A stretch of 60,129 nt of DNA from a bacterium (GTDB lineage Bacteria > Patescibacteriota > Andersenbacteria > UBA10190), in contig JAUYKA010000007.1 of the NCBI GenBank assembly GCA_030698495.1, positions 1 to 60,129 of the forward strand. Direction: 5' to 3'. The position numbers were made by a program, and so were the translations under genes. Shown in pieces: positions 1 to 59,995 of this stretch. Numbering within the stretch: position 1 is the stretch's first letter; every line of letters starts with the position of its first letter. The notes beneath the pieces were generated by a model. That model was not told the origin of the DNA. It searched no databases and worked only from the letters and a program-made list of their open reading frames with translations.

Positions 1-102
1 TTGATACGGCTGTAGTGGTCGGCCTGGCGGCAGAAGTTCTTCTTAATAAGAAGTACAAAAAGCCGGCTTGCCGGCCGTAGCTCCGCCAGAGGCGGAGCGG
101 AG

Positions 103-186
103 GCCGGGGTGGTGAAATTGGCAGACACGTACGGTTTAGGACCTTATGTCCGCAAGGACGTGCAGGTTCAAGTCCTGTCCCCGGCA
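103..186 (+). tRNA. tRNA-Leu (anticodon TAG), class II with long variable arm, CCA not encoded
   Basis: Acceptor GCCGGGG/CCCCGGC, anticodon loop TTTAGGA, variable hairpin GTCC-GCAA-GGAC and T-arm GCAGG-TTCAAGT-CCTGT. There is one C/U mismatch in the anticodon stem. Confidence 0.8.
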
Positions 187-3356: not shown

Positions 3357-3704
3357 TTAAGCTCCTTGAATGGCGCCAACAACGAAGTTGACGACCGCAG
3401 CGGCCAAGCCGATAACGATTAAGCCGAGAACGGCATACAGAATGGTGTTTTTAGCTTGAGATGATTGATCTTCGTCACCTTGGGAAAAGATATAACGGAA
3501 GCCGCCAAGAATGAGGAACACGACCGCGGCTAAAGCTGCCAATATAAGTAAACCATTGAGCAGGAAGGTGACGGCGTTGACTAACGAGTTTTGCGCCGTG
3601 CCTTGCGGAGCGGGAACTGTGGTAAGACCTTGCGCCAGGACAATGCCCGGAAGGGCTAACAGAGAAACCGGCGATAAGTGTTTAATGGTTGAGCGGATGT
3701 TCAT
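3357..3704 (-). CDS. VirB2/TrbC-like (T4SS-pilin-like) small membrane protein
   Basis: 115 aa with a signal-like N-terminus, a TM helix, the loop GGFRYIFSQGDEDQ, a Lys-rich turn and a second TM helix. The 3' 75 nt are near-identical to 3828-3902. Confidence 0.7.
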   Translation of the reverse strand: MNIRSTIKHLSPVSLLALPGIVLAQGLTTVPAPQGTAQNSLVNAVTFLLNGLLILAALAAVVFLILGGFRYIFSQGDEDQSSQAKNTILYAVLGLIVIGLAAAVVNFVVGAIQGA

Positions 3705-3785
3705 GTGCTCCTCACCTCCTTTGAAGTTAGATTATTAAGTTTTACTTGTTTTATTATAAACGAAGTAGGAAATTTAGTCACTTAC

Positions 3786-4880
3786 TTATCCGTAAGGCAG
3801 ATTATTGCGAACAATCGCCCAGAGGACGAAGTTGACGACCGCGGCGGCCAAGCCGATAACGATTAAGCCGAGAACGGCATACAAAATGGTGTTTTTAGCT
3901 TGGGCGGAAGCCTGTTCATCGCCTTGAGAAGCGATGTAACGGGCGCCGCCGATTATAATAAAGACGATAGCCCCCAGGCCGACTAGAACCATCAGAACAT
4001 TAAGGGTTGTCCAGATGAGGCCGGGCAGATTGGTAACTCTACCGACTACAGCTTCGTTAACAAAGGCAACGATAGCGGCGGCAAAACCGGTAACGAGCAA
4101 ACCGAGCACGGCGTACAAAATGGTGCGTTTGGCGGTGGCGCTTTTCTGTTCATCGCCCTCGGATGTAATGTACTGGACGCCGCCGTAGATAATAGCTATC
4201 AGAGCAGCCAAGCTGACCAAAACCAAGAAGACGTTGATGATGGTTAGAATCATGTCGGGTAAGGCCATCGTTTCGCCTCGAATAGCGCCGGCGGTAAAGA
4301 CAACGATGGCGAAGGCCAGGCCGACAATGATAAGGCCGGCGACGGCATAGAGGACCGTGCGCTTCCCCTTGGCGGCTTGTTGTTCATCGCCGCCGGATAT
4401 CATATATTGCACGCCGCCATAGATAATGGCGGCGAGATCAATAACAGCAATGAGGGCCAAAAAGACTTTGATAATAGTGAATATCATGTCGGGGAGTTTT
4501 GTGGTTCTGCCTTTCAGGGCACCGCCGGTGAACTGAACAATAGCGGCAGCCAAACCAACGATAAGCAAGCCGACAACAGCAAATAAAACAGTACGTTTTC
4601 CCTTGGCGGCTTGTTGTTCATCGCCGCCGGATATCATATATTGCACGCCGCCATAGATAATGGCGGCGACAGCTATAACGGCTATTAAGGCTAGAAAAAC
4701 ATTAATAATAGTTTGCAGGATATTGGCGAGTGAGCTCGGTTGGCCGTCACCGCATTGCAGTCCCAGGGTGCCGCAGTCGGCATCAGGAAGAAGATCAAGT
4801 TGAGCGGCGGCGGGGAAAACAGTTATTGCTAGTGCGGTTACAGCCAGAGTGAAGATGGTGGATTTGACTATGAATTTCAT
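3786..4880 (-). CDS. Four tandem pilin-like modules fused in one 364-aa polypeptide
   Basis: Signal peptide plus four units of (TM - GGVQY[MI][IT]S[GE]GDEQ - KxKRT[VI]L - TM). The period is 234 nt, and a 69-nt block is identical at 4367-4435 and 4601-4669. Confidence 0.7.
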   Translation of the reverse strand: MKFIVKSTIFTLAVTALAITVFPAAAQLDLLPDADCGTLGLQCGDGQPSSLANILQTIINVFLALIAVIAVAAIIYGGVQYMISGGDEQQAAKGKRTVLFAVVGLLIVGLAAAIVQFTGGALKGRTTKLPDMIFTIIKVFLALIAVIDLAAIIYGGVQYMISGGDEQQAAKGKRTVLYAVAGLIIVGLAFAIVVFTAGAIRGETMALPDMILTIINVFLVLVSLAALIAIIYGGVQYITSEGDEQKSATAKRTILYAVLGLLVTGFAAAIVAFVNEAVVGRVTNLPGLIWTTLNVLMVLVGLGAIVFIIIGGARYIASQGDEQASAQAKNTILYAVLGLIVIGLAAAVVNFVLWAIVRNNLPYG

Positions 4881-6380: not shown

Positions 6381-6767
6381 TTAGGGAGTGAAAATTTGTA
6401 ACATTTCGGTCAGTTCAATAATTATCGTGTAAGACAATGCGATGACAATAAGACCAACAATAGCCCAAAATATTATTTTTTTAGCGTGCTGGACGCGATT
6501 ATCGTCGCCTAGTGAAACAACATACATTATTCCTCCCCAAATCAGAGCCAGGAGTGCCAGAAGGCCGACCAGGCCGAGAAGCCAGTTAATAATGTTCTGC
6601 AAAAATAGCTCGATTTTAGTGACACTACCTAATGGATTAGTAAAGCCACTAGAAGATCCTGGCCCGCCTGGATCAACTACTGGTCCTGCCAAAACTATAT
6701 TTGAAGTCGTAATAAGGAAAAAAAACAAAGAAAAAAAGATGATACTGACAATACGTGTAGGTTTCAT
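6381..6767 (-). CDS. VirB2/TrbC-like pilin-family protein
   Basis: 128 aa with the core WGGIMYVVSLGDDNRVQHAKKIIFWA. Its start overlaps the stop of the upstream SBP gene as ATGA. Confidence 0.7.
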   Translation of the reverse strand: MKPTRIVSIIFFSLFFFLITTSNIVLAGPVVDPGGPGSSSGFTNPLGSVTKIELFLQNIINWLLGLVGLLALLALIWGGIMYVVSLGDDNRVQHAKKIIFWAIVGLIVIALSYTIIIELTEMLQIFTP

Positions 6768-8620: not shown

Positions 8621-8653
8621 ATTGGTTATCTGCTAATAGAATAGCATAAAAAA

Positions 8654-8786
8654 GCGAGAACAGTGAAGACAGTAAATACAGCGAGTACAGTAAATTAAGT
8701 AAATACAGTTACGACTACGACGACTATAAAATAGTAAATGCAGCTACTGTATTTACTGAATTTACTATTCTTGCTGTATTTACTGA
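8654..8786. repeat. Word-built intergenic palindrome, 'TAAATACAG' dialect
   Basis: The left arm is made of GTGAAGACAG / TAAATACAG / TAAATTAAG words and the right arm of their complements (CTGTATTTACTGAATTTAC...). Copies of the same dialect occur at 27247, 36079 and 57434. Confidence 0.7.
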
Positions 8787-11285
8787 CTACTCCCCTATCC
8801 AGCTGGTGAAGGCGGCGACTTTACCGCTTTGCGGTGTGGGGCGCATAACACGTACACCCTGGGTAGCACGACCGAGCGAGCTGACACCGGCGGCGTCAAT
8901 ACGAATGACTTGGCCTTTGCCGGAAATAATAAAGAGATCGGTGGTGCTTATCTTGTCGGAAGCCAATACGGAAGCGGTAACAATGGCACCGGTTTTGGCC
9001 GTTACTTTGGCGGTTTTTATGCCGGAGCCGCCGCGTTTTTGCCGGCGGTATTCGGTTAACTTAGTGCGTTTGCCGTAACCCTCTTCGGTAATCACTAGAA
9101 CTTCCTGGGCTTTAGCGACGTCGGCGGGAATAACATGCATAGATACAACGTTGTCATTTTTCTTTAAGTGGATGCCGCGTACACCGGCGGCGGTTCGCCC
9201 CATAGGACGAACGTCTTTTTCGGAAAACCGAACCGCTTGACCGGCGGCGGTAATCAGCAGGATTTCGTCTTTACCGGTGGAAATGGCGACCCATTCCAGC
9301 GTATCGTCGTTCTTGATGTTGATTGCTTTTAGACCGGAGCGGCGGATGTTAATAAAATTCTGCCGGGAAGTCTTTTTTACCAAACCTTGTTTGGTGGCCA
9401 TGAACAGGTATGCCCCCGATTCATCGGCACTGGGCAGAGCTTGAACGGCGGTGACTTTTTCGCTTGGTCCCAGCTCAAGAAAATTCTGCAGCGCCTGTCC
9501 TTTGGCGGTACGGGTGGTAGCGGGGATTTCATAAGCTTTGATAGAAAATACGCGTCCCTGATTGGTAAACAATAACAGCTCCTTATGAGTGGTAGTGGCC
9601 AAAAAAATCTCAACCACGTCTTCTTCTTTGGTGGTCATCCCCCTAACGCCTTTACCGCCGCGTCCTTGGACTTGGTAGGTGGAAGTAGACAGTCTCTTGA
9701 TGTAGCCGCCGCGGGTGACGGTAACGATAGTGGGGTCGTCGGGAACAAGATCTTCCTGGGAAAAGTCCCCGACTGGCTGACTAAAAACACGCGTGCGGCG
9801 ATCGTCGCCGTATTGAGCTGATAGGTCGGTATAGTCTTGCTTTATCATGCTTAGAACCTTTTTGGGGTCGCGCAAAATGCTTTCCAGTTCGTGAATAAGG
9901 CGGCGTTTTTCTTTCAGTTCGTCTTCTATTTTTTTCCTTTCCAAACCGGCCAATGTTTGCAGGCGCATTTCCAAAATAGCAGTCGCTTGAGCGTCGCTGA
10001 AACGAAATTGCTTGCGCAGGTTAATATGGGCGGTTTCTTTAGTGTGACTTTTCTTAATAGTGTCGATAACCCGATCGATATGATCAAGCGCCTTACTTAA
10101 GCCTTCCAATATATGCGCTCGGTCGCGCGCGCGGTCCAGTTCAAACTGGGTGCGGCGAGTGATGACAATTTGGCGATGATTGATGTGTTCCTGTAAAACT
10201 TCTTTAAGACTCAACACTTTGGGCTGCCGACCTTCATCCACGAGGGCAATCATATTGACGTGGAATGTTTTTTGCAGGTCGGTTATGGAAAATAGCCGGT
10301 TGAGAACTTTTTTGGGATAGGCTTCTTTTTTTAGCTCGATGACGACTCTAATACCATCTTTATCGGATTCATCGCGAATGTCTTTGATGCCTTCAATTTT
10401 TTTGTTTTTAACGGCGTCGGCGATTTTTATAATTAGCTGGGCCTTATTCACAAGATAAGGGATTTCCCGGACGATAATGCGATGCTGGCCGGTTTTGTAC
10501 TCTTCGATATCGGCTAAGGCACGCATTACTACACTGCCTTTGCCGGTAGCATAGGCTTGAAGGATCTCCTGTTTGTTATATATAGCCGCGCCAGTGGGAA
10601 AATCAGGACCCTTAATATATTGCATTAAGGTCTCAACAGTGGCATTCGGTTTGTCTATTAAATGAATGGCGGCGGCACAAACTTCGCGTAAATTGTGAGG
10701 GGGAACAGTGGTTGCCATGCCGACGGCAATACCCAGCGTGCCGTTAACGATGAATTGAGGGATAGCGGATGGCAACACCGCCGGTTCTTTTCTGGTGCCA
10801 TCGTAATTGTCGCGCATGTCTACCGTGTTTTTTTCAATGTCCAACATAATTTCGTCGGAAATTTTTGCCAGCTTAGCTTCTGTATAACGCATAGCCGCGG
10901 GTGAATCACCATCAATACTCCCCCAGTTGCCTTGGCCAGAAATGAGCTCGTAGCGCATGGAAAAATCTTGCGTTAAACGAGCCAGGGCATCATACACGGC
11001 AATGTCTCCGTGGGGGTGATATTTACCAAGAACGTCTCCGATAACGTGCGCTGATTTGCGGTACTTGGCTGTAGAACGAAGCCCTTGTTGCCACATAGAG
11101 TATAGGATACGTCGAGCGACTGGTTTCATACCGTCGCGTACATCCGGTAACGCGCGTTGGACAATGACGCTCATGGCATAGTCCAGGTAGCTTCGCTGTA
11201 TTTCAGCAGACAATCCTTGCTGAATTAATTTGCCAATATCAGAATGACTGCTGCGTTCCGGCGCCGGTTGAATCTTTTTAGGCAT
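8787..11285 (-). CDS. gyrA: DNA gyrase subunit A
   Basis: 832 aa. It has the N-terminal sequence ...AMSVIVQRALPDVRDGMKPVARRILY, the catalytic AAMRYTE motif and C-terminal beta-pinwheel repeats. Confidence 0.97.
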   Translation of the reverse strand: MPKKIQPAPERSSHSDIGKLIQQGLSAEIQRSYLDYAMSVIVQRALPDVRDGMKPVARRILYSMWQQGLRSTAKYRKSAHVIGDVLGKYHPHGDIAVYDALARLTQDFSMRYELISGQGNWGSIDGDSPAAMRYTEAKLAKISDEIMLDIEKNTVDMRDNYDGTRKEPAVLPSAIPQFIVNGTLGIAVGMATTVPPHNLREVCAAAIHLIDKPNATVETLMQYIKGPDFPTGAAIYNKQEILQAYATGKGSVVMRALADIEEYKTGQHRIIVREIPYLVNKAQLIIKIADAVKNKKIEGIKDIRDESDKDGIRVVIELKKEAYPKKVLNRLFSITDLQKTFHVNMIALVDEGRQPKVLSLKEVLQEHINHRQIVITRRTQFELDRARDRAHILEGLSKALDHIDRVIDTIKKSHTKETAHINLRKQFRFSDAQATAILEMRLQTLAGLERKKIEDELKEKRRLIHELESILRDPKKVLSMIKQDYTDLSAQYGDDRRTRVFSQPVGDFSQEDLVPDDPTIVTVTRGGYIKRLSTSTYQVQGRGGKGVRGMTTKEEDVVEIFLATTTHKELLLFTNQGRVFSIKAYEIPATTRTAKGQALQNFLELGPSEKVTAVQALPSADESGAYLFMATKQGLVKKTSRQNFINIRRSGLKAINIKNDDTLEWVAISTGKDEILLITAAGQAVRFSEKDVRPMGRTAAGVRGIHLKKNDNVVSMHVIPADVAKAQEVLVITEEGYGKRTKLTEYRRQKRGGSGIKTAKVTAKTGAIVTASVLASDKISTTDLFIISGKGQVIRIDAAGVSSLGRATQGVRVMRPTPQSGKVAAFTSWIGE

Positions 11286-13910: not shown

Positions 13911-13975
13911 TGGGTCGGAGCGGCGGGATTTGAACCCACGATCCCACTGCGCTAAAGCTACGCGGGACGAGAATA
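13911..13975 (-). pseudogene. Truncated tRNA-Pro-like copy (T-arm, 3' acceptor strand and part of the D region; no anticodon arm)
   Basis: 29 nt (GGTCGGAGCGGCGGGATTTGAACCCACGA) are identical to the 3' part of the tRNA-Pro gene 103 bp away. No 5' acceptor strand is present. Confidence 0.55.
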
Positions 13976-14159: not shown

Positions 14160-14396
14160 AAGGAAACGGATATTAGAAAGGTCGCTTACGCGACCGTTCA
14201 GTAGCCCTTCGAACCGACTCGCTGTTGCGAGTCTCTCTCAGGGTTCTTTGAAACAAGGAAACGGATATTAGAAAGGTCGCTTACGCGACCGTTCAAAGTA
14301 GCTCTTCGACTCCATGGCCTGTTGGCCATGTCGCTCAGAGTTCTTTGAATCAAGGAAACGGATATTAGAAAGGTCGCTTACGCGACCGTTCAAAGA
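14160..14396 (-). repeat. About 96-bp tandem repeat (2.5 units) of a structured element between tRNA-Ala and tRNA-Pro
   Basis: The block AAGGAAACGGATATTAGAAAGGTCGCTTACGCGACCGTTCA starts at 14160, 14255 and 14352. The intervening segments are homologous and their hairpin stems differ by compensatory changes. Confidence 0.85.
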
Positions 14397-14820: not shown

Positions 14821-14992
14821 ATTTCTTTATTGTAGCCGCACGCCGCTACACAACAAGTTGCGTAGCTATGCGGGGCATGCCACTTCGTTAAAACTACGCG
14901 GCACTCTGCACTTCGCTTCTGATGCAGTATTTTATCTACATCCCAAGGTGACCTGCCACGCGAAGCTCCTCGTGAAAACGAGGAGCGAAGTG

Positions 14993-15065
14993 TGGACCTG
15001 AGGAGGTTCGAACTCCTTGCCTCTTCCATGCCATGGAAGCGCTCTGCCAATTGAGCTACAGGCCC
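14993..15065 (-). tRNA. tRNA-Ala (anticodon GGC)
   Basis: Acceptor GGGCCTG/CAGGTCC with G3:U70, anticodon stem-loop CTTCC-ATGGCAT-GGAAG and T-arm GGAGT-TCGAACC-type. Confidence 0.85.
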
Positions 15066-21270: not shown

Positions 21271-23259
21271 ATGCAGTACGAATATTGGGTGATTGGCGCG
21301 GCTGTGCTGGCGCTGGCGTATGCGGCCTGGCAAGCGCGGTTAATTGCTGTCAAGCAAGTAACTGATAAAAAGGCCGGCGAAATTGCTCAAGCGATCAGAG
21401 AAGGGGCGATGGCTTTTCTGGCGCGCGAATATCGAGTGCTGGCGATTGTGGTGGTGATTGTGGCTTTTTTGATGTGGCTGACACGCTTTGTTGGATCAAC
21501 CGAGCAAACTATCGCGCCGCAGACAATTATGGCGTTTATAATCGGTGCAGTGCTGTCGGTGGCGGCCGGTAATATGGGAATGAGGATAGCTACGCTGGCT
21601 AATGTTAGAACAGCGGAAGCAGTTAAAAAGAGTATGGGCAACGGCTTGGCGGTGGCCTTTTCTTCGGGAGCCGTAATGGGGATGACAGTGGTTGGTCTGG
21701 GACTACTTGGCGTTACGCTGTTGTGGCTTTGGTTTGGTAATCCCACTTTAATTTACGGATTTGGTTTTGGCGCGTCAGCGGTTGCTCTGTTTGCCCGAGT
21801 AGGCGGCGGAATTTACACCAAGGCGGCTGACGTGGGCGCTGATTTGGTCGGAAAGATAGAACAGAACATACCGGAAGATGATCCTAGAAATCCGGCGGTA
21901 ATTGCTGATAACGTAGGTGATAATGTCGGCGACGTGGCCGGTATGGGCGCTGATCTGTTTGAAAGCTACGTGGATACGTTAATTGCCGCTATGGTACTGG
22001 GACTAGTGGCGTTGCCTACTTTTGGCAGTTACGGCGTTATCTATCCTTTGGGCTTGGCGGCAATCGGCATTATAGCCAGCTTGGTTGGTGTTAACGCGGT
22101 GCGTACCAATGATGAAAGTAAGATTAGCAGCAGTTTCAATCGCGGTATTTTTCTAGCCGGAGGCTTAATGGTTGTTGGTTCTTGGTTTTGGACAAATTAT
22201 TTGTTCCGGGCACTGCCTCTGTTTTGGACGGTAGTTACAGGATTAGTGGCGGGCATTATTATCGGATTAGTTACGGAATACTACACGAGTCACGATAAGG
22301 CGCCAACACGTCAAGTGGCGCACGCGGCTAAAACCGGAGCGGCTACGAACATTATCAGCGGCTTGTCGCTGGGAATGTTTTCTACGGCAGTGCCGGTTTT
22401 AGTAGTAGCGGCCGCGATATTAATCTCTTATTGGCTGGCGGGTATTTACGGTATTGCCATTGCGGCTGTGGGAATGTTATCGACGCTGGGAATTACACTG
22501 GCGAGCGATACTTACGGTCCGGTGGCCGATAACGCGGCAGGCATTGCGGAGATGGCCGGTATGGGGGAAGAAACCAGAAAGAGGGCGGAGTCTTTGGACG
22601 CAGTTGGAAACACCACGGCGGCTATCGGTAAAGGCTTCGCGATAGGATCGGCGGCACTGACAGCCTTGGCATTGTTAGTCAGTTATATAACAGTAGCGAA
22701 GATAGGCAGCGTTGATGTAATCCATCCTAAAGTGATGGTGGGGTTGTTTATCGGCGGCGCTTTACCTTTTTTGTTTTCCGCTTTCTCGATGCAAGCGGTC
22801 GGCAAGTCGGCAATGAAAATGGTTGAGGAAGTACGCCGACAATTTAAAGAAATTCCCGGATTGATGGCGGGTACGGCCAAGCCGGATTATAAGAGAAGCG
22901 TGGACATTGCCACGACAGCGGCTCTGCATGAGATGGTTCTTCCGGGAATATTGGTGATTGCCGTGCCGATTGTGGTTGGCTTTACGTTGGGAGCAGAAGC
23001 TTTGGGCGGACTTTTGGCCGGCAGTATTGTGACGGGGTTCCTGCTGGCAGTAATGATGGCAAATGCCGGCGGAGCCTGGGATAACGCGAAGAAATATATA
23101 GAAGCGGGTAATTTGGGCGGCAAGGGATCAGATACGCATAAGGCAGCGGTTATAGGCGATACGGTTGGCGATCCGTTTAAGGATACGTCGGGACCGAGCC
23201 TGAACATTCTGATTAAGTTAATGTCCATTGTGGCGTTGATTATAGCGCCGCTGTTGTAA
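21271..23259 (+). CDS. hppA: Membrane-bound proton/sodium-translocating pyrophosphatase
   Basis: 662 aa, polytopic, with the motifs [27 protein letters not shown] and [11 protein letters not shown]. Confidence 0.93.
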
Positions 23260-23377
23260 ATGCAAAATGCAAAAATCAAAAATCAAAATGATATTTTAAA
23301 ATTTGCATTGTCGTAAAAATAATATTTTTTATTTGTCATTTTGCGTTTTGCAGTTTACATTTTGAATTACTGTATTT

Positions 23378-24737: not shown

Positions 24738-24796
24738 AATTTTCAATTATCCAGCCGTCGCTTAGGAGCTATGGCCGGCGCGGCAATTTCCAATTT
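24738..24796. repeat. 59-nt hairpin repeat (intergenic copy) with the CGTCGCT-N-GCTATGG core
   Basis: AATTTTCAAT..TCCAGCCGTCGCTTAGGAGCTATGGCCGGCGCGGCAATTTCCAATTT. A near-identical copy lies at 27733-27791 inside nfo. Confidence 0.85.
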
Positions 24797-25007
24797 TCAT
24801 TGAAATTTCAATGATTCAATTGGCAAACATTACAACCGATGTTATGAGGCTTATGGCATGTATTAGTTAATATTTGATTATTGAAAATTGGTAATTAAAT
24901 GGAAATTGAAAATTGTAAATTGGAAATTTTGTCAGCTGATTACTCTCCACTTCAAGTGATTTTGCGGTATATTAATATAAGAAGATTGTTTATCTATAAT
25001 TTTTATT

Positions 25008-25592
25008 ATGAGTTATCTAATACCCACGGTTTTGGAAAAATCGCAATACGGCGAGCGGGCTTATGATATTTATTCCCGTTTGCTGAAAGAGAGAATTATT
25101 TTCATCGGCGGAGCGATTAATGATGAGGTGGCCAATGTTATTATCGCCCAGCTGATCTTTTTGGAACATGAGGATCCTAAAAAAGACATTAGGCTTTATA
25201 TCAACTCCCCCGGTGGCGTAGTGACGGCCGGATTGGCAATTTACGATACGATGCAATTTATTCAACCGGCCGTATCGACAATTTGCGTGGGTATGGCGGC
25301 CAGTATGGGAGCGGTTTTACTGGCCGGCGGCGCGAAGGGCAAACGCTTGATTTTACCGAATGCGGAAGTAATGGTGCATCAGGTTATGGGCGGTGCCGAG
25401 GGGCAGGCTTCGGATATAGAAATAAGCGCCCGCCATATTTTGCAAATGAAAGACCGACTGAACAAGATTTTAGCCGCACATACCGGACAGCCACTAAAAA
25501 AAGTGGAAAAAGATACGGATCGGGATTATTATATGTCTGCAGAGGAAGCGAAAGAATACAAGATTATTGATGATATTGTTAAAAAGGCTTAA
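25008..25592 (+). CDS. clpP: ATP-dependent Clp protease proteolytic subunit
   Basis: 194 aa with [14 protein letters not shown], the Ser-His-Asp context GMAASMG and MVHQ. Confidence 0.96.
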
Positions 25593-27246: not shown

Positions 27247-27364
27247 CAGCGAGGACAGTGAATACAGTAAATACAGCAAGGTCAGCCCATTAATATATTG
27301 AGGGGCGAGGAAAGTGAATACAGTGACTGTATTTACTGAATTTACTGTATTTACTGTTCTCGCT
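27247..27364. repeat. Word-built intergenic palindrome, 'TAAATACAG' dialect
   Basis: CAGCGAGGACAGTGAATACAGTAAATACAG ... CTGTATTTACTGAATTTACTGTATTTACTGTTCTCGCT, between rny and nfo. Confidence 0.7.
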
Positions 27365-27375
27365 ATTATTTAGAT

Positions 27376-28332
27376 ATGGCAAAGTATCAGAGAATAGGGT
27401 TGCATGTGTCGGCAGCGGGAGGGGTAGAGAACGCGCCAGAGCGCGCAAAAGAGCTGGGCGCAGAGTGCTTTCAGTTTTTCTCGCGCAGTCCGCGGGGCGG
27501 CAAGGCACCGGAGATCGGCGATGAACAAGCACGGCAATTTCAAGAACGATGCGAGAAATACGGTATGGCCAGCTATATTCATACACCCTATTACATAAAT
27601 TTCGCGTCGAAAAAAAACAGCTTGGCCAAGGCGGCGCCGCGGATTGTGCGGGAGGAATTGGAGCGTGGCAGTAAGTTGGGGGTTAAGTACGTGATGACGC
27701 ATTTGGGAAGCGCGCGAGACTGGGACAAAGACAATTTTCAATCTTCCAGCCGTCGCTTAGGAGCTATGGCCGGCGCGGCAATTTCCAATTTCCAAAAACC
27801 GCGGAATGCTTTGAATCAGGTTATTGCTGGTTTGAAGGAAATATATAGTGATTGGCCCCCCGCCGCTTCGCCTACGGCGAAGACTATGGGGGGCGATAAG
27901 AAGTTCTTTACAGAACTTCTTATCGAGATATCGGCGGGGGCCGGGGCGGTTATCGGCGATTCTTTCGAGGAACTCGGATATATCCTGAAAGAGCTGGGTC
28001 GAAGCGATGTGCATGTTTGTTTGGATACCTGCCATATGTTTGCTTCCGGGTATGATATTCGTACGGTTGGAGCGATAGATGAAACCATGCGGCAATTTCA
28101 TAAACACATTGGCATAAACCGATTAAAGCTAGTGCATGTTAATGATTCCAAGGCCGATTTGGGAGAGCATAAGGACAGGCATGAACATATCGGCAAAGGA
28201 AAAATAGGTGAGGCGGGATTTAAGGTGTTGCTGGCACATAAGGATTGGCAAAAGGTTAATTTTATTTTGGAGACAAAACACGATAGTTTGATAAAACATG
28301 ATATGCAGTTTTTGAAGGAGAATAGGAGATAA
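27376..28332 (+). CDS. nfo: Endonuclease IV (AP endonuclease) carrying two in-frame repeat insertions
   Basis: 318 aa with GLHVSAAGG, THLGS, EISAGAG, CLDTCHMFASGYD, VHVNDSK and ILET. The HLGS-to-EISAG spacer is roughly 35 aa longer than in E. coli Nfo as I recall it. Confidence 0.88.
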   Translation: MAKYQRIGLHVSAAGGVENAPERAKELGAECFQFFSRSPRGGKAPEIGDEQARQFQERCEKYGMASYIHTPYYINFASKKNSLAKAAPRIVREELERGSKLGVKYVMTHLGSARDWDKDNFQSSSRRLGAMAGAAISNFQKPRNALNQVIAGLKEIYSDWPPAASPTAKTMGGDKKFFTELLIEISAGAGAVIGDSFEELGYILKELGRSDVHVCLDTCHMFASGYDIRTVGAIDETMRQFHKHIGINRLKLVHVNDSKADLGEHKDRHEHIGKGKIGEAGFKVLLAHKDWQKVNFILETKHDSLIKHDMQFLKENRR

Positions 28333-28411
28333 ATCAAAATGCAAAAATCAAAATGCAAAATGACAAATTAAAATTCAAAAAGATTACTCCGACATATCAG
28401 GTAATTCAAAT

Positions 28412-29100: not shown

Positions 29101-29814
29101 ATGGGTAGGAGATGGCCAAGACTAAAGAGAGCAGAAAATCAGAAGTGGACGGTGGATTTGGCTTATGCTTGCGGTCTTCTGGCTACGGACGGTTCTTTAT
29201 CCAAAGATGGCCGACATATAAACTTGACCTCAAAAGATATCGAACAATTAGAAACATTCAAGCGCTGTCTTGGGCTAACAAATAAGATTGGCTGGAAAAT
29301 AAGCGGGTATACCGGAAAGATGAATTCGCAAGTTCAATTTGGAAATGTTGTTTTATACAGATGGTTGGTTTCGATAGGTATTGGCCCTCATAAAACAAAA
29401 AGTATTGGCGTTGTGAGGATTCCTGATGAATATTTTTTTGATTTTCTGCGGGGTGAATTTGATGGAGATGGATCCTCTCATGCTTATTGGGATACGCGTT
29501 GGCATAGTAGTGTTTCGTTATATATTCAGTTTGTCTGTGCTAGTAAGTGCCATTTAGAGTGGCTACGTACCACCGTTTTTCGTTTAATTGGGTCACGTGG
29601 CGTAATGGGCAAAAGCCGTAGTATTTTTCAATTAAAATTTGCGAAGACACAAGCGCTTCCTTTGTTTGAATCTATGTATTACAGCGGAGATATCCCATAT
29701 TTATCTCGAAAGAAAGAAAAATTAGATCGTCAATGGACGGCATTAAAACAGTCCAAATTGGGAATACTCCCCGAAGGATTTAATCGTAATGGTTCAATTA
29801 TCAAGATAGCTTGA
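29101..29814 (+). CDS. LAGLIDADG homing endonuclease (double-motif)
   Basis: 237 aa with the motifs LAYACGLLATDGS and FLRGEFDGDGS. It ends 35 nt before tRNA-Leu(GAG). Confidence 0.8.
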   Translation: MGRRWPRLKRAENQKWTVDLAYACGLLATDGSLSKDGRHINLTSKDIEQLETFKRCLGLTNKIGWKISGYTGKMNSQVQFGNVVLYRWLVSIGIGPHKTKSIGVVRIPDEYFFDFLRGEFDGDGSSHAYWDTRWHSSVSLYIQFVCASKCHLEWLRTTVFRLIGSRGVMGKSRSIFQLKFAKTQALPLFESMYYSGDIPYLSRKKEKLDRQWTALKQSKLGILPEGFNRNGSIIKIA

Positions 29815-29933: not shown

Positions 29934-29952
29934 CTGAAAGGGCGGTTAGCTT

Positions 29953-29977
29953 CCCCCGTCGCTAAATCTATGGGGGA
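29953..29977. repeat. Short hairpin repeat CCCCC-GTCGCTAAATCTAT-GGGGG
   Basis: It shares the loop core with 55027-55051 (inside rnhB). Related cores lie at 24751, 27746 and 27856. Confidence 0.7.
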
Positions 29978-30006
29978 CACGGCAGTGGTAGGGTTTATTA
30001 AAATAG

Positions 30007-35045: not shown

Positions 35046-35235
35046 GTTTTTCTCGCCGGGTGATGCTTCTCGCGATACCTACTCTTGGCGGCATACTTGT
35101 CCAGCCCAGCGGCTGGACTGCGCTCGACTAAAAGCCTGCCGCTCCGCCCTCTAGGCGGAGACCATGCCGGCAGGCTTTTAGACGACCGCCGAGAGTAGGC
35201 ACCGCGAGCATCACCCGACGCCCCGTTCTGTCTCA
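35046..35235. ncRNA. Candidate structured RNA/element 'L1' (three-way junction; homolog at 53731-53920), strand unresolved
   Basis: A long closing helix pairs 35056-35091 with 35186-35220. It encloses hairpin A (TCCAGCC-CAGC-GGCTGGA), the conserved single-stranded GCGCTCGACT and a 50-nt hairpin B. The stems covary with the second copy. Confidence 0.45.
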
Positions 35236-35464: not shown

Positions 35465-36082
35465 ATGAATAACCACCCGTCGGGGGTTAAACGAATAGGA
35501 GATTATCTGGCTGCCTTCTGGAAGGCGGTGCGCGAGATGTCTTGGGACACGTTGCATCTTATTCCTGTGGCGGCTTTTTTGTTTGTCAGTAGTGTGCCGA
35601 GTGAGTCTCTGGCTTTCGCGGAACAAGTGGAGTTAGCCCAGAAGCCTTTGATTTTTGAGCGCGATCCCAGCCTGGCCAGTACGGCGATTGTCGGGATTGA
35701 GGCTTGGCCGAAACAGCGTACGGCAGGAGGAGTGCTGGGATCCGGTGTTTCCCGCATACCCGACGCGGCTAAGGAGATTAAAGAAGGCACGGCAATTCGG
35801 GTGTTGTCCACGGCGTATTCTTCTACTTACGATCAAACCGATGCTAATCCTTGGGGGACAGCTTCCGGGACACGCGTACATATGGGCACAATGGCAGCCA
35901 ATTTTCTGCCGTTTGGCACCAAGGTGAGAATCGGCAACACGGTCTATACGGTGGAGGATCGCCTGAACGCGCGCTATAACGGGAAATATATCATTGATAT
36001 CTGGCAGCCTAGTCGGGAAGCGGCGTTGAGGTATGGCGTGCGTGTGGTGGAGATAGAAGTTGTATCGGTGCCATCAGAGTAA
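35465..36082 (+). CDS. 3D-domain (MltA/YabE-like) cell-wall-active protein
   Basis: 205 aa. The C-terminal sequence STAYSS...DANPWGTASGTRV..GT.AAN.LPFGTKVRIGN.VYTVEDR...IDIW is typical of 3D domains. An alternative start lies at 35537. Confidence 0.72.
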   Translation: MNNHPSGVKRIGDYLAAFWKAVREMSWDTLHLIPVAAFLFVSSVPSESLAFAEQVELAQKPLIFERDPSLASTAIVGIEAWPKQRTAGGVLGSGVSRIPDAAKEIKEGTAIRVLSTAYSSTYDQTDANPWGTASGTRVHMGTMAANFLPFGTKVRIGNTVYTVEDRLNARYNGKYIIDIWQPSREAALRYGVRVVEIEVVSVPSE

Positions 36083-36156
36083 ATACAGTAAATTAAGTAA
36101 ATACAGTGAATACAGTTGCTGTACTCGCTGAATTTACTGTATTAACTGTACTCGCT
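36079..36156. repeat. Word-built palindrome, 'TAAATACAG' dialect, overlapping the stop codon of the 3D-domain gene
   Basis: G-TAA-ATACAGTAAATTAAGTAAATACAGTGAATACAG ... CTGAATTTACTGTATTAACTGTACTCGCT. The TAA stop at 36080-36082 is part of the first word. Confidence 0.7.
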
Positions 36157-36224
36157 GGTATGGCCTTGCTATTTTCGTGATATTCGCTATACTTGCTTTT
36201 ACCTTTAGCTAATAGTGCTCTGAT

Positions 36225-47517: not shown

Positions 47518-47528
47518 GGGCACATTAT

Positions 47529-47644
47529 AAACGCAAAACGTAAAACGAAAAATGCAAAGGAACAATATAAAACCCAAAAGAACGACGGCGTTATTTTATT
47601 TTTTCTTGTTGTTTTTAGTTTTGCGTTTTAAGTTTTTCGTTTTC
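47529..47644. repeat. About 115-bp palindromic element, 'AAAACGCAAAA' dialect
   Basis: AAACGCAAAACGTAAAACGAAAAATGCAAA...AAAACCCAAAAGAACGAC...TTTGCGTTTTAAGTTTTTCGTTTT. Homologous copies lie at 56041-56152 and 56636-56757. Confidence 0.75.
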
Positions 47645-48889
47645 CTATTCGTGTCTTAAGGCGTCAATGGGGTCCTTTTTGGCGGCCTGGCGGGCGGGAT
47701 AGAGTCCAAAGAGCAAGCCTACACTAACAGCCATACCAACGCCAAGAGCGATAGCCCCGAGGGGGATCGTCAATGGCCAGTCCAGGTTGTATTGCGTACG
47801 GATGACGACGACTATCAGCAAGGAAATACTTATGGCGATAATCGTGCCAATCAGTCCGCCGGAGAAGGTGAGAAAAACGGCTTCGAGCAGAAACTGCTGC
47901 ATAATATCGCGTTGGCTGGCGCCGACGGCTTTGCGTAAGCCGATTTCCTTTATTCTTTCCGTGACGGAGACCAACATAATATTCATAATACCCACACCGC
48001 CGACCAGTAGGGAAATGGCGGCGATGGAAACCAGAAAAATAGTCAGAACTTGAGTGACGGTGCTGATGCGATCAACAATGTCCTGCTGGGTTAAAACAAA
48101 GAAGTCATCTTTGGCGGGGTCGGTAATGTTGTGCATCTCGCGCAGCGTGGCTTTGACGTCGGCGGCTACTTGATTGATGTCGGCGCCGGGTTTGGCTTTG
48201 GCAATAACTTCCTGAAAGTAATCGATGCCGAGAATTTCTTTTTGAGCGGTGGTGTAGGGCAGAATGACGATATCGTCCACGTTAAATCCGGACAATTGTC
48301 CGGTTTTGGGCAAAACGGCCACTACCCGCATTTTTTGCTGATGAACGGTGACCAGCTGATTAATAGCGGGGGATTCGCCGAATAATTGGTCTTTGACGTG
48401 CCAGCCGATGATGGCTACTTTGGCGTTTTGCTTGATGTCATCGTTAGTAAAATAGCTGCCGGTAGCAGGATAGATATTAAATATTTCCGCCATGGCATCG
48501 GCGGTCCAACCAAAAATGAGGGGGCGGAATATGTTGTTTTGGTAAGAAACGTTACCGGGAACAATAACGGCCGGATCAATAGAGGCAAGCCCGGGGACAT
48601 TATTGGGGTTAGAGAGAGCTATTATGTCTTTGTCTTTCAAACTATCGGAGTAAACGGTATTGGCGATGTCGGCGGCCCCGGTGGGCTGACGGCCGGGGCG
48701 AATCACCAGAGCGTTGCCGCCAATACTTTCCACCTGGCTTAAGATAAGACTCTGCGCTCCCTGACCGATGGCGACAACAAGAACAATGGCGACAATACCA
48801 ATGACAATGCCAAGGATTGTCAGCAGAGAGCGCCCCAGGTTTCCCCGGAGGGCAGCTAGAGCGGTTTTGGCGGCAATAGATAGTCTCAT
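47645..48889 (-). CDS. ABC transporter permease, MacB/FtsX family
   Basis: 414 aa with an N-terminal TM helix, a large extracytoplasmic domain and a C-terminal FtsX-like 3-TM bundle. Confidence 0.88.
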   Translation of the reverse strand: MRLSIAAKTALAALRGNLGRSLLTILGIVIGIVAIVLVVAIGQGAQSLILSQVESIGGNALVIRPGRQPTGAADIANTVYSDSLKDKDIIALSNPNNVPGLASIDPAVIVPGNVSYQNNIFRPLIFGWTADAMAEIFNIYPATGSYFTNDDIKQNAKVAIIGWHVKDQLFGESPAINQLVTVHQQKMRVVAVLPKTGQLSGFNVDDIVILPYTTAQKEILGIDYFQEVIAKAKPGADINQVAADVKATLREMHNITDPAKDDFFVLTQQDIVDRISTVTQVLTIFLVSIAAISLLVGGVGIMNIMLVSVTERIKEIGLRKAVGASQRDIMQQFLLEAVFLTFSGGLIGTIIAISISLLIVVVIRTQYNLDWPLTIPLGAIALGVGMAVSVGLLFGLYPARQAAKKDPIDALRHE

Positions 48890-54620: not shown

Positions 54621-54791
54621 ATTGATAGTATATAGTATTTAGTGTGTAGTATTTAGTATATTACATTAGCTTTTTGCCCTCGTAGCTCCCCACTTCGCTC
54701 AATCCATGATTGAGCTTCGCGGGGCAAGCATCTAAATTTGAAAAGTATGCTTGTCTAGCGTAGCTTTGTCAGAATAACAAAGCTGGATCCA

Positions 54792-54869: not shown

Positions 54870-55625
54870 ATGAAGACACAGACACCTACGTTTAAATATG
54901 AGCAGCAGTATTGGCAACAGGGGATTGATTTGATTGCCGGGGTTGATGAGGTGGGGATGGGGGCGCTGGCGGGACCTGTTTGTGCTGCCGCCGTAATATT
55001 TGGCAGCGGCAAAACGCAAAACGCATCCCCCGTCGCTAAAGCTATGGGGGACAAGGAAATCAAAAGGCAAAATATTGGTATCCCGCTTACGCGGGACAAG
55101 ATTTTCATTAGAGATAGCAAAACTTTGTCGGCTAAACAGCGAGAGATGGCGGAGAAGTGGATTCGTGAAAATGCTTTGGCTTGGGCGGTGGGGGAGGCTT
55201 CGGTGGAGGAGATTACGGTTTTGAATATTCGCCGGGCGTCGCATTTGGCGATGCGGCGGGCGGTTGACGCGCTGTCTCAAAAGCCGGAGATGTTGTTGGT
55301 TGACGGCAATCCGGCACAGCCGCATGAGACAGTACCGAGCGTTAATATTCTGGACGGAGATGCTTTGTCTTTTTCAATAGCGGCGGCGAGTATTGTGGCG
55401 AAAGTCTATCGGGATAATCTAATGGTTGAGCTGGATAAGAAATATCCGGCGTATGGGTTCGCGGCACATAAGGGTTACGGCAGTCAGTTTCATTTGGGGG
55501 CGTTGAAAGAACACGGCGCGTGCGCAATTCACCGGCCGACTTACGCGCCCATAGCAAAACTTAAAAGGCAAAACGAATCCCACTTCGCCCCGCCCAAGGC
55601 TGGGCTACGCGGGACAAGAAACTAA
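54870..55625 (+). CDS. rnhB: Ribonuclease HII carrying in-frame repeat insertions
   Basis: GVDEVGMGALAGPV, DSKTLS, SIVAKVYRD, GYGS..H and HRPTYAP. The ATG at 54870 is 4 nt after tRNA-Arg. About 27 extra aa sit between the AAVIF and DSK motifs. Confidence 0.88.
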   Translation: MKTQTPTFKYEQQYWQQGIDLIAGVDEVGMGALAGPVCAAAVIFGSGKTQNASPVAKAMGDKEIKRQNIGIPLTRDKIFIRDSKTLSAKQREMAEKWIRENALAWAVGEASVEEITVLNIRRASHLAMRRAVDALSQKPEMLLVDGNPAQPHETVPSVNILDGDALSFSIAAASIVAKVYRDNLMVELDKKYPAYGFAAHKGYGSQFHLGALKEHGACAIHRPTYAPIAKLKRQNESHFAPPKAGLRGTRN

Positions 55626-55782: not shown

Positions 55783-56040
55783 ATGGCCGTTCCCAAGAAG
55801 AAAACCTCAAGAACCAAGCGCAACATGCGGCGCAGCCATCACGGCCGAAGCCGGTTGCAGTTGTCGACTTGTCCGCGCTGTCATTATACTGTGCCGGCGC
55901 ATACGGCTTGTCCAAATTGCGGCACTTATCATGGCCGGGAAGTTATTGACGTACTGAAGAAGCTGGAGAAGAAGGAGCGCAAGGCTAAGGAGAAGGAATT
56001 GGAAGAGCAGGAGCACGAACACGAGCACAACGAAACGTAG
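55783..56040 (+). CDS. rpmF: 50S ribosomal protein L32 with a Glu/Lys/His-rich tail
   Basis: MAVPKKKTSRTKRNMRRSH... with a C-x2-C...C-x2-C zinc ribbon. Confidence 0.9.
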   Translation: MAVPKKKTSRTKRNMRRSHHGRSRLQLSTCPRCHYTVPAHTACPNCGTYHGREVIDVLKKLEKKERKAKEKELEEQEHEHEHNET

Positions 56041-56152
56041 AACTAAAAACTAAAAGTGAAAAACTATAACCTAAAACCCAAAAGAACGACCACGACATTG
56101 TTTTGAGTTTTTAGTTGTTCTTTTGCATTTTTCGTTTTGCCTTTTACGTTTA
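56041..56152. repeat. About 115-bp palindromic element, 'AAAACGCAAAA' dialect
   Basis: It shares the central AAAACCCAAAAGAACGAC block and the right arm TTTTGCATTTTTCGTTTTGCCTTTTACGTTT with 47529-47644. Confidence 0.75.
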
Positions 56153-56635: not shown

Positions 56636-56757
56636 AAAAACGTAAAAGGTAAAACGAAAAATGCAAAAGAACAACATAAAAATCAAAAGTTTTACGACGG
56701 TAATGTTTTAGGTTTTGAGTTGTTATTTTTCGTTTTTCGCTTTAAGTTTTTAGTTTT
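56636..56757. repeat. About 120-bp palindromic element, 'AAAACGCAAAA' dialect
   Basis: AAAAACGTAAAAGGTAAAACGAAAAATGCAAAAGAACAAC...GTTGTTATTTTTCGTTTTTCGCTTTAAGTTTTT. Confidence 0.75.
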
Positions 56758-56758
56758 T

Positions 56759-57442
56759 ATGCCAGATTTATCGGAATTAGAAAAAACACTGGGGGTTGAA
56801 TTCAAGAACAAGGATTTAGTGGAAACGGCGCTGACGCATCGTTCTTATTTAAATGAGAATCCGAGGTTTAACCTGCCGCATAACGAGCGGCTGGAGTTTT
56901 TGGGCGACGCGGTGCTGGAATTGATTGTGACGGATCACCTTTATCATCACTACAATTTACCGGAAGGAGAGTTAACTAATTTGCGGGCGGCGGTGGTACG
57001 CGGAGAAATGTTATCGGTGGTGGCGGAGGAGCTGGGCCTTGACGATTTTCTGCTTCTTTCGCGCGGGGAAAAGAAAGATACGGGTAAGGCCAGACAATAT
57101 ATTTGGGCTAATGCAGTGGAAGCGGTGATTGGCGCGATATATTTGGATGCGGGATATGAGGCGGCCGCCGGGTTCATAGAAAGAAATATTATTAAGAGGC
57201 TGCCGGAAGTAATAGAGCAGGGATTGCATATTGACAGCAAAAGCAAGTTTCAGGAATTGGCACAGGAAAAATATCGCGCAACGCCTTCTTATAAGGTTTT
57301 GAGTGAAGAGGGTCTGGATCACGCCAAACAGTTTGTGGTTGGTGTTTTTGTCGGTAAGGAACAGATGGGAGAGGGTAAGGGGACCAGTAAACAAGAGGCA
57401 CAGCAGAATGCGGCGAAAGAAGCGTTGGAGAAGATACAGTGA
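56759..57442 (+). CDS. rnc: Ribonuclease III
   Basis: The signature NERLEFLGDAVL and a C-terminal dsRBD (GKGTSKQEAQQNAAKEAL). The ATG at 56759 is preferred over the longer ORF. Confidence 0.92.
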   Translation: MPDLSELEKTLGVEFKNKDLVETALTHRSYLNENPRFNLPHNERLEFLGDAVLELIVTDHLYHHYNLPEGELTNLRAAVVRGEMLSVVAEELGLDDFLLLSRGEKKDTGKARQYIWANAVEAVIGAIYLDAGYEAAAGFIERNIIKRLPEVIEQGLHIDSKSKFQELAQEKYRATPSYKVLSEEGLDHAKQFVVGVFVGKEQMGEGKGTSKQEAQQNAAKEALEKIQ

Positions 57443-57506
57443 ATTCAGTAAATACAGTAAATTAAGTAAATACAGCCGCTGAATTTACTGTTTTTACTGT
57501 ATTCAC
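57434..57506. repeat. Word-built palindrome, 'TAAATACAG' dialect, overlapping the rnc stop codon
   Basis: ATACAG-TGA-ATTCAGTAAATACAGTAAATTAAGTAAATACAG...CTGAATTTACTGTTTTTACTGTATTCAC. Confidence 0.7.
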
Positions 57507-57519
57507 TTAAAATAAGGCA

Positions 57520-59823: not shown

Positions 59824-59995
59824 ATATGAATTTCCAATCTTCAATTTCCAAAATTGTTTGTCATTGCGAACCCAGCACCTTTTTGCAAAAAGGGGGCTGG
59901 GTGCGGCAATCTTAACGTCGTGTTTGAAAATTGAAACATTGGGTCTTCAATGGAAATTGGAAATTGAGCATTGAAAATTGGCGCTTGCCAGTCTT
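59824..59995. repeat. Word-built palindromic spacer, 'GGAAATTGAAAATTG' dialect
   Basis: AATTTCCAATCTTCAATTTCCAAAATTG ... CAATGGAAATTGGAAATTGAGCATTGAAAATTGG with a central GC hairpin. The same dialect occurs at 24690-24960. Confidence 0.65.

Follow-up and report, generated by a model that had tools for sequence, protein, structure and literature searches.

The nfo locus and its two inserts

Positions 1 to 60,129 of contig JAUYKA010000007.1 (GenBank assembly GCA_030698495.1), a stretch which we analysed over its whole length and call the window, belong to a groundwater bacterium of the Andersenbacteria, in the Patescibacteriota or Candidate Phyla Radiation (CPR), and contain nfo, the open reading frame (ORF) for endonuclease IV. 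Two short segments within this gene, insert 1 and insert 2, resemble repeats that lie between genes of the same window (Table 1). A sequence-only reading made before this study had taken them for palindromic repeats inserted in frame, in the manner of the Rickettsia palindromic elements (RPEs), and this interpretation is supported here by insert-free orthologs, by the placement of both inserts in loops, and by a dispersed family of hairpins.

Table 1. Host genes, inserts, and members of the hairpin family located in the window
Feature	Position (nt)	Strand	Evidence
nfo (endonuclease IV), 318 aa, host of both inserts	27376..28332	+	ORF, Pfam, Protein Data Bank (PDB), synteny
Insert 1, 62-nt repeat module, read as NFQSSSRRLGAMAGAAISNFQ, aa 120-140	27733..27794	+	62-nt match to intergenic twin
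Intergenic twin of insert 1, between tig and clpP	24738..24799	+	62-nt match
Insert 2, two-tier hairpin, read as PPAASPTAKTMGG, aa 161-173	27856..27893	+	fold and shared frame
rnhB (RNase HII), second host gene, 251 aa (modal length 211-215 aa)	54870..55625	+	Pfam RNase_HII in two stretches; ortholog lengths
Insert in the loop of rnhB: AAAACGC heptamers, hairpin of the family at 55026-55051, A-rich units, second hairpin 55081-55096	55002..55106	+	blastn, fold
rnhB C-terminal tail: intergenic-type module and family hairpin 55578-55614 (TCCCAC-TTC-GC...GC-TAC-GCGGGA)	55557..55614	+	
Simple member TCCCCC-GTC-GC-TAAA-TC-TAT-GGGGGA, intergenic, tRNA-Leu/tRNA-Val	29952..29977	+	
Two-tier member, intergenic, upstream of tRNA-Arg	54688..54724	+	
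Member TCCCAC-TGC-GC-TAAA-GC-TAC-GCGGGA, adjoins tRNA-Pro	13944..13969	+	
Member TGCCAC-TTC-GT-TAAA-AC-TAC-GCGGCA, compensatory changes in both stems	14878..14903	+	
Two-tier member abutting 3' end of tRNA-Ala	14956..14995	-	
Two-tier member overlapping 5' end of tRNA-Leu	71..107	-	
Diverged two-tier relative of insert 2 (...GC-TCCGCC-CTCTA-GGCGGA-GAC-CAT...), intergenic	35134..35175	+	

The product of nfo matches the Pfam family AP_endonuc_2 (E 1e-44) and solved Nfo structures in the PDB (E ~1e-37), and the gene order nusA-tig-clpP-rny-nfo-udg is common to the window and the ortholog loci that we fetched. Our ortholog set comprised the 120 nearest Nfo homologues (58-66% identity), those with a name being Candidatus Andersenbacteria or Patescibacteria. 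Nine residues are invariant across it (H69, H109, E184, D217, H220, H254, D267, H269, and E299), and they correspond to the metal ligands of the Escherichia coli enzyme, which we take to be H69, H109, E145, D179, H182, H216, D229, H231, and E261, at a constant offset of +38/39 past the loop. The protein is an endonuclease IV, with the AP_endonuc_2 triose-phosphate isomerase (TIM) barrel and all nine metal-ligand positions intact, and to judge from its sequence the gene with both inserts looks functional.

Insert 1 consists of a heptamer unit, a hairpin core at 27746-27773 (CCAGCC-GTC-GC-TTAGGA-GC-TAT-GGCCGG), and two further heptamer units. It agrees with its intergenic twin over 62 nt with 3 mismatches (95% identity), and the two have an exact 33-nt core in common, for which the expectation in shuffled sequence is 0. 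The sequence-only reading had described the repeat as 59 nt with 3 mismatches; the repeat is real, but those 59 nt hold 2 mismatches, the third lying at 27792 within the 62-nt match. A long palindromic module of (CAATTTY)n / (RAAATTG)n has the twin at its left edge, and in this module the (CAATTTY)n heptamer array forms the arms of the intergenic palindrome. The AATTTYCAA direct repeats said to bracket the insert do exist, but both copies share the segment in which these repeats lie, and the repeats are part of the (CAATTTY)n array; they are therefore not target-site duplications. The hairpin itself is weak (fold z = -0.7 and -0.35) and no more stable than shuffled sequence, so that "palindromic" was a generous description of insert 1, which is a composite of heptamer units and a weak hairpin. 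Given the 95% identity, the module 3 kb upstream may recently have been copied to give insert 1, through transposition or through ectopic conversion or template switching.

Insert 2 is a stable two-tier hairpin (CCCCCC-GCC-GCTTCGCC-TAC-GGCGAAG(A)C-TAT-GGGGGG), which folds far better as DNA than its shuffles on the sense strand (z = -3.9) and on the other strand (z = -3.5). As a string it is unique at 3 mismatches or fewer, and its proposed kinship to elements at 29953 and 55027 holds: the frame C5-6 / GYCGCT / ... / CTAT / G5-6 is common to insert 2 and to the hairpins at 29952-29977 and 55026-55051. The in-frame peptides of both inserts are as they had been given earlier. Conservation of the frame suggests that both are translated, and LGAMAGAAISNFQK and DWPPAASPTAK are among their predicted tryptic peptides.

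Filled and empty sites among Nfo orthologs

Insert-free Nfo orthologs, which the sequence-only reading had proposed as a check, are the rule, and most of the 120 have neither insert. At site 1, after HLGS, the modal length is 13 aa (13-14 aa in 70/120) against 30 aa here; at site 2, before LLxEISAG, 93 of the 120 have the modal 7 aa against 21 aa here. Relative to these norms insert 1 adds ~17 residues and insert 2 adds ~14. An expansion of at least 5 aa is found at site 1 in 21 orthologs, at site 2 in 22, and at both in 5. Both parts of the opposite expectation, that all orthologs carry homologous residues at these positions and that these have no similarity to intergenic repeats, are contradicted.

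About 18% of the orthologs hold other hairpin or AT-rich-repeat inserts at the two sites, in both orientations. Site 2 carries GCCCCAC-TCC-GC-CAAG-GC-TWC-GCGGGGC, read as PHSAKASRG, in three loci (L002, L005, and L006), and a two-tier hairpin in the opposite orientation in a fourth (L003), while site 1 of L004 carries CCAGCC-TTC-GC-CAAG-GC-TTC-GGCCGG, with the outer stem of insert 1 and A-rich heptamers flanking it. In one near-isogenic filled/empty pair of a related lineage (P0005/P0028) the difference is a clean 30-nt hairpin indel between genes whose proteins are 97% identical outside the loop and whose DNA is ~92% identical. These ortholog inserts and the indel indicate that the sites have been recurrently gained or lost, with at least two independent events at site 2. 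Both Nfo sites are insertion hot spots, occupied recurrently and independently.

The segment from HLGS to EISAG, which had been estimated as roughly 35 residues longer than in E. coli Nfo, is indeed lengthened, by ~40 aa relative to the solved Nfo of Thermotoga maritima and by ~31 aa relative to the modal ortholog of the clade. An AlphaFold2 model of the protein, built on the 120-sequence ortholog alignment, is a TIM barrel with a mean predicted local distance difference test (pLDDT) score of 90.4, and its only stretches of poor confidence, at aa ~120-140 and ~160-175, are the two inserts. Mapped onto the barrel, as had also been proposed, both fall in low-confidence loops flanking helix alpha4: insert 1 in the beta4-to-alpha4 loop (pLDDT ~51-55) and insert 2 in the alpha4-to-beta5 loop (pLDDT <50 at aa 167-174). 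The model suggests that these loops are compatible with the TIM-barrel fold and that the extra residues (~17 and ~14) are probably disordered. We infer that both inserts are neutral passengers.

A dispersed hairpin family in the window and in metagenomes

Family hairpins occur twice in a second gene of the window, rnhB, once in a loop that follows AAAVIF and is hypervariable among orthologs, and once in a C-terminal tail that is longer than in orthologs. The loop insert matches intergenic DNA by blastn at 29952-29979 (96%) and, as an inverted copy, at 55762-55741 (95%); it folds with z = -3.2, and its second hairpin reads TCCCGC-TTAC-GCGGGA. Orthologs of RNase HII carry loop inserts made of NFQ-heptamers and a hairpin, for example NFQFLIFPAAVGLGCGRRNFQS in L008. 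When all coding sequences of the window were compared with all of its intergenic DNA by blastn, only nfo and rnhB gave clear matches, two other coding sequences giving borderline ones of 15 nt. Several RNase HII orthologs (P0135, P0168, P0177, P0187, P0189, P0200, and P0215) are 344-362 aa long and have a DUF559 (PF04480) endonuclease domain, and the shorter orthologs are without it; in L003 a free-standing DUF559 gene lies directly upstream of nfo.

We counted the family by a structural regular expression with a shuffle control and by an exact-pattern scan. The motif occurs 9 times against 0.61 expected in dinucleotide shuffles, and ~12 family members lie in the 60 kb. Rfam at gathering thresholds reported only tRNAs within the window. 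In unitigs of the Logan collection from two groundwater runs (X1 and X2), the insert 1 module was found in a third genomic context, with a tandem second hairpin, and in several diverged copies. A scan of GTDB representatives, among which the source genome is not included, for the insert 1 core returned a sole match, in an Opitutaceae metagenome-assembled genome (MAG). This is an intergenic CCAGCC-GTC-GC-TCTTGA-GC-TAT-GGCCGG on a verrucomicrobial contig (L009 5018-5043, JAQTYQ010000016.1), with a chance expectation of ~0.02-0.1; Opitutus terrae has been reported to have the most intragenic GTAG repetitive extragenic palindromic (REP) elements (PMC3733652).

Beyond the window, JGI/ENA metagenome contigs were scanned for one 24-nt variant, CCCACTNCGCYAARGCTWCGCGGG, which occurs on at least 120 contigs of 31-67% GC. 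Counting the element family had been another of the checks proposed, and the family is dispersed and mostly inside ORFs. The results in this paragraph refer to the matches listed. Across 112 distinct contexts the sequence is conserved from -1 to +28 and then drops to background, giving sharp ends, and the conserved span reads Y-CCCAC-TNC-GC-YAAR-GC-TWC-GCGGG-R-YAAG. No flanking k-mer identity above background, as a target-site duplication would leave, was found in these 112 copies. Eighty copies lie far enough from contig ends to be judged, and 47 of them (59%) are inside ORFs of at least 150 aa, compared with 71% of random windows of the same loci. The hairpin is read in all three sense and all three antisense frames, and the frame in which it would read TAA is used solely by variants without TAA.

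All ten host ORFs that we tested are bona fide housekeeping proteins (UvrC, MiaB-MiaA, MnmA, a class II aminoacyl-tRNA synthetase, Fpg with two copies, RadA, Ile/Val-RS, TypA, LeuRS, and GDH). A further host, RecJ, on a 60%-GC contig of Kaiserbacteria/Paceibacterota, has a filled/empty pattern among orthologs that are 75-80% identical, which extends the hairpin family across CPR classes. In RecJ and in the nfo pair, presence of the hairpin coincides with indels of 30 nt or ~9-10 codons, and in nfo, rnhB, and RecJ alike the element lies in frame in a conserved protein and is absent from orthologs. The twin at 24738, the third context in the source metagenomes, the ~12 members in 60 kb, and the metagenome contigs together describe a dispersed family. 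The 24-nt hairpin is present twice on some of the contigs: both copies on L046 are in one Fpg gene (6484-6699), those on L061 (2597-2657) are read in different frames of one ORF at a distance of 37 nt, and those on L024 (1399 and 8758) are in two different large ORFs.

Stem covariation and strand asymmetry

We examined covariation in 15 aligned members after trimming the alignment by hand to three parts, namely outer stem, internal loop, and the inner stem's first two pairs. Of its eight stem pairs, five to six have changed on both sides, well beyond what shuffles and slid controls give, and this covariation, together with the fold of insert 2 (z = -3.9), identifies the family as hairpin-forming, the evidence from insert 1 alone being weak. 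Pairing differs between the strands. On the strand that reads in the sense of nfo, pairing covers 90.0% of alignment cells and fails in 12, which with one exception are A·C; on the complementary strand, where G·U or G·T replaces A·C, 99.2% pair. This difference points to a hairpin constrained on one specific strand. The better-pairing strand is antisense to the mRNA in nfo, in rnhB, and in 36 of the 47 ORF copies among the metagenome matches listed, an arrangement that would speak for an intermediate of single-stranded DNA, or for an antisense RNA, and less for a structure in the mRNA. On the fully pairing strand the common variant reads CCCGC-GAA-GC-CUUG-GC-GAA-GUGGG; in RNA, CUUG tetraloops are stable motifs, as are GNA/GNA internal loops.

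GC skew is strongly positive in every 5-kb bin of the window (+0.08 to +0.27) though genes lie on both strands, and the window is probably on one replichore. Ten of the 12 family members in the window have one orientation, a small sample, and this common orientation would fit a replication-linked process. Mutation bias as a source of the A·C asymmetry was set aside, since the asymmetry appears to run counter to what so strongly positive a GC skew would predict.

Comparison with known repeats

RPEs are palindromic repeats found in frame in Rickettsia genes (Ogata et al. 2000, as summarised in PMC10969869). As far as that summary describes them, they and the CPR family are alike in being dispersed palindromes that occur both in spacers and in frame in unrelated housekeeping genes, where they add fold-compatible peptides, in having about half of their copies in ORFs, and in that no transposase is known for either. 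RPE-1-type elements are summarised there as ~100-150 bp long, with a conserved peptide, in Rickettsia, whereas the CPR family has a core of ~26-40 nt, is read in six frames, and lives in CPR hosts, with peptides that vary (PHSAKASRG, PTSLKLRG, TPLRQGFAG, APRSLGEVG, and others). At 26-62 nt and in an Andersenbacteria/Patescibacteria host, our elements are set apart from RPE-1 to RPE-10 by the summarised description of these, and no sequence kinship was noticed.

Several phyla are known to have intragenic REPs tagged with GTAG/CGTC, with genes for DNA repair and for tRNA synthetases as notable hosts, and these REPs include RPE-4 and RPE-6 of R. conorii and the REPs of Opitutus terrae (Di Nocera et al. 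2013, PMC3733652). Like the CPR family, they are stem-loops of 20-40 nt with G·T pairs in the stem and no target duplications, and some of their copies lie in genes, where they encode 10-30 extra residues (PMC3733652). The two differ in that REPs have a tetranucleotide tag at one end of the element (PMC3733652), whereas the internal loop of the CPR family contains the GWAG (complement CTWC) and CGTC-like motifs, the conserved ends, in the 112 copies among the matches listed, being Y at -1 and R-YAAG at the 3' end rather than a terminal GTAG/CGTC. REPs are also mostly extragenic (PMC3733652), as against the 59% of judged CPR copies inside ORFs. No REP-associated tyrosine transposase (RAYT) was seen for the CPR family in a tblastn search of low sensitivity, made in 825 kb of fragmentary DNA with two Y1 transposase queries.

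The small dispersed repeats of heterocystous cyanobacteria, reportedly described by Elhai et al. in 2008 (Genome Res), are said to have conserved secondary structure and compensatory changes. Like the CPR family, they are reported to be tens of nucleotides long, mobile-looking, nested in other repeats, and sometimes in genes; the phylum and the sequences differ. Uptake sequences of Pasteurellaceae and Neisseriaceae (uptake signal sequences and DNA uptake sequences) are likewise short motifs that cross species and occupy several coding frames at tolerant protein positions, but they accumulate by substitution and biased uptake without indels, whereas the CPR hairpins are discrete insertions of ~30 nt whose presence coincides with indels. 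For a miniature inverted-repeat transposable element (MITE), the target-site duplication is missing from the 112 listed copies; no insertion sequence was identified in the window or the fetched loci. We found no report of such in-gene palindromic repeats in the literature on CPR, Patescibacteria, or Parcubacteria, nor any mention of the element or its peptides, in a search that most subscription journals lay outside. Since intragenic palindromic repeats are already known beyond Rickettsia (PMC3733652), what is new is the lineage and the element family, not the phenomenon.

Proposed origin and spread of the inserts

In our favoured explanation, which we hold to be probable, hairpin repeats that are very small and REP/RPE-like form a family across the CPR, insert without duplicating their target, and are kept in genes only in tolerant loops. 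According to this explanation, nfo would have been colonised twice by members of a dispersed small-hairpin family common in CPR/Patescibacteria genomes. The family core of ~26-40 nt comprises a C/G-rich outer stem of 5-6 bp, a 3x3 internal loop, an inner stem starting G-C then C-G, and at its tip an apical loop or an extra stem, often in the company of AT-rich 7-nt units. Copies would land in spacers, beside tRNAs, and inside genes, and those surviving selection in genes would be the ones that keep the frame, have no stop codon, and sit in a structurally tolerant loop. Spread may be by copy-and-paste on a single-stranded hairpin, as for REP/RAYT or IS200/IS605-type HUH enzymes.

Several points weigh against this explanation. 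An empty-site allele of this organism's own nfo was not found, the nearest orthologs being only ~65% identical, and the two insertion events in nfo are accordingly drawn from comparison, not observed. The hairpin of insert 1 does no better than its shuffles, and its flanking heptamer units make it look like a copied piece of an intergenic module, less like a discrete element. The members used for covariation came from a scan that allowed one stem mismatch only, and their alignment was trimmed by hand. No transposase or other mobilising function was identified, the Y1 queries giving no match in the 825 kb of fragmentary DNA searched, and the 24-nt core is near-invariant across CPR classes in contigs of widely differing GC, which could point to a conserved function instead of selfish spread.

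One alternative, which we consider rather doubtful, is that insert 1 arose not by transposition but through a local copying accident, in which ectopic gene conversion or template switching pasted ~60 nt of the tig-clpP module into an insert-prone loop of nfo. The two copies are close together, in the same orientation, and 95% identical, the copied piece includes heptamer units and not a bare hairpin, and the CCAGCC...GGCCGG hairpin at the same site in L004 is a possible homology anchor. The third, unlinked context and the diverged copies in the source metagenomes speak against it, as do the similar NFQ-heptamer-plus-hairpin modules in RNase HII of other organisms, and together these indicate that the module is dispersed rather than a one-off local duplication. 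This alternative concerns the copying route only and is compatible with a dispersed hairpin family.

A bolder proposal, to which we give only a slim minority of our belief, is that the ~30-nt hairpin (the conserved span given above and its stem variants) is a CPR-wide, strand-specific recognition element for a conserved machine. The machine might be an RNA-binding factor, a transposase or recombinase of a new kind that acts on single strands, or one for which the hairpin signals DNA uptake or repair. The main rival to the favoured explanation, which we think unlikely, is that the hairpin is a functional signal under selection in CPR bacteria and is kept in genes for its usefulness, as uptake sequences are in Pasteurellaceae and Neisseria; it might be bound by a conserved protein, affect the stability or processing of RNA, or serve in DNA uptake or recombination. 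Besides the near-invariant core, such a role would agree with the only mild depletion from coding sequence among the matches listed, with the conserved internal-loop nucleotides and strand-specific pairing, with the RNA motifs of the common variant, and with the several copies that directly adjoin tRNA genes. It agrees poorly with presence in the form of clean insertions of ~30 nt, in place of substitutions converging on a motif, with the occurrence of either orientation relative to genes and tRNAs, with a better-pairing strand that is mostly antisense to the mRNA in listed ORF copies, and with close orthologs that do well without the insert. Excision from the mRNA as a bulge-helix-bulge or mini-intron was also considered and rejected as unsupported: the indel is a multiple of three, ORF copies are free of stops, and TAA variants are missing from the affected frame.

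Ordinary lineage-specific loop expansion, with the likeness to intergenic DNA due to chance, composition, or low-complexity slippage, is very improbable. The two Nfo loops do vary in length across the clade, and parts of the inserts are short-period repeats able to grow by slippage, but the exact 33-nt and 95% 62-nt matches have zero expectation in shuffles, the structured frame is in excess (9 against 0.61 expected), and the 24-nt core keeps sharp boundaries in more than 100 unrelated contexts. Least credible of all is an assembly chimera, with a repeat collapsed into nfo by the assembler: De Bruijn unitigs do break exactly at the 47 nt that the copies share, which is bound to happen to a two-copy repeat in a k=31 graph, but in the Logan unitigs of both X1 and X2 either half of insert 1 runs on into unique nfo sequence, a separate MAG contig (JAXMKP010000035.1, GCA_034372665.1) has the identical join at 99.97% identity over 6.1 kb with both inserts included, and the Nfo reading frame and fold are preserved across the join.

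Other repeats and ORFs of the window

Most intergenic spacers of the window are long imperfect palindromes of short-period AT-rich units with reverse-complementary arms. The units are 7 nt long (AAAAYGC or CAATTTY, for example) or 9 nt long (AGTAAATAC, for example), and the palindromes lie at 23257-23376, 24784-24930, 27247-27365, 28329-28381, 8653-8788, 36069-36160, 47528-47650, 56032-56152, 56636-56757, 57430-57510, and 59830-59980. In a further run without this organism (X3), Logan depth reaches ~115-220 over some of these spacers, for example 24768-25035 and 28252-28385, and similar modules are thus common in the community. Between tRNA-Pro and tRNA-Ala (14160-14393) there are three tandem units of ~95-97 nt, each ending in an identical 41-nt block with the hairpin GGTCGC-TTAC-GCGACC, and their variable parts have differing hairpins.

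A free-standing LAGLIDADG-type ORF (29101-29814), whose copy on the MAG contig has a faint match to Pfam LAGLIDADG_3, lies between udg and tRNA-Leu and is absent from the syntenic loci L002-L005. Tandem 234-nt repeats of 75-80% identity (3369-4690), unrelated to the hairpin family, lie inside a minus-strand ORF (3786-4880) that sits in a run of small ORFs with signal-peptide-like N-termini.

Implications

Genomes of CPR/Patescibacteria are small and streamlined, and are usually thought to be repeat-poor. Here a family of 30-nt hairpins is found in frame in several CPR classes, in enzymes that repair DNA or modify tRNA, in aminoacyl-tRNA synthetases, and in GTPases. This would account for many extra loops and differences in length of CPR proteins that have had no explanation. 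For annotators and structure predictors this is a caution that such segments are repeat-derived, and for strain typing from metagenomes the filled and empty sites would be natural markers. The two inserts in Nfo mark two permissive sites on the TIM barrel. They also pose a mechanistic question, namely what copies a 30-nt hairpin without target duplication where no cognate transposase is seen. If the reading of the hairpin as a recognition element were true, the hairpin, through its near-random occupancy of housekeeping ORFs, would be a major driver, so far unrecognised, of how protein length has evolved in the reduced Patescibacteria genomes.

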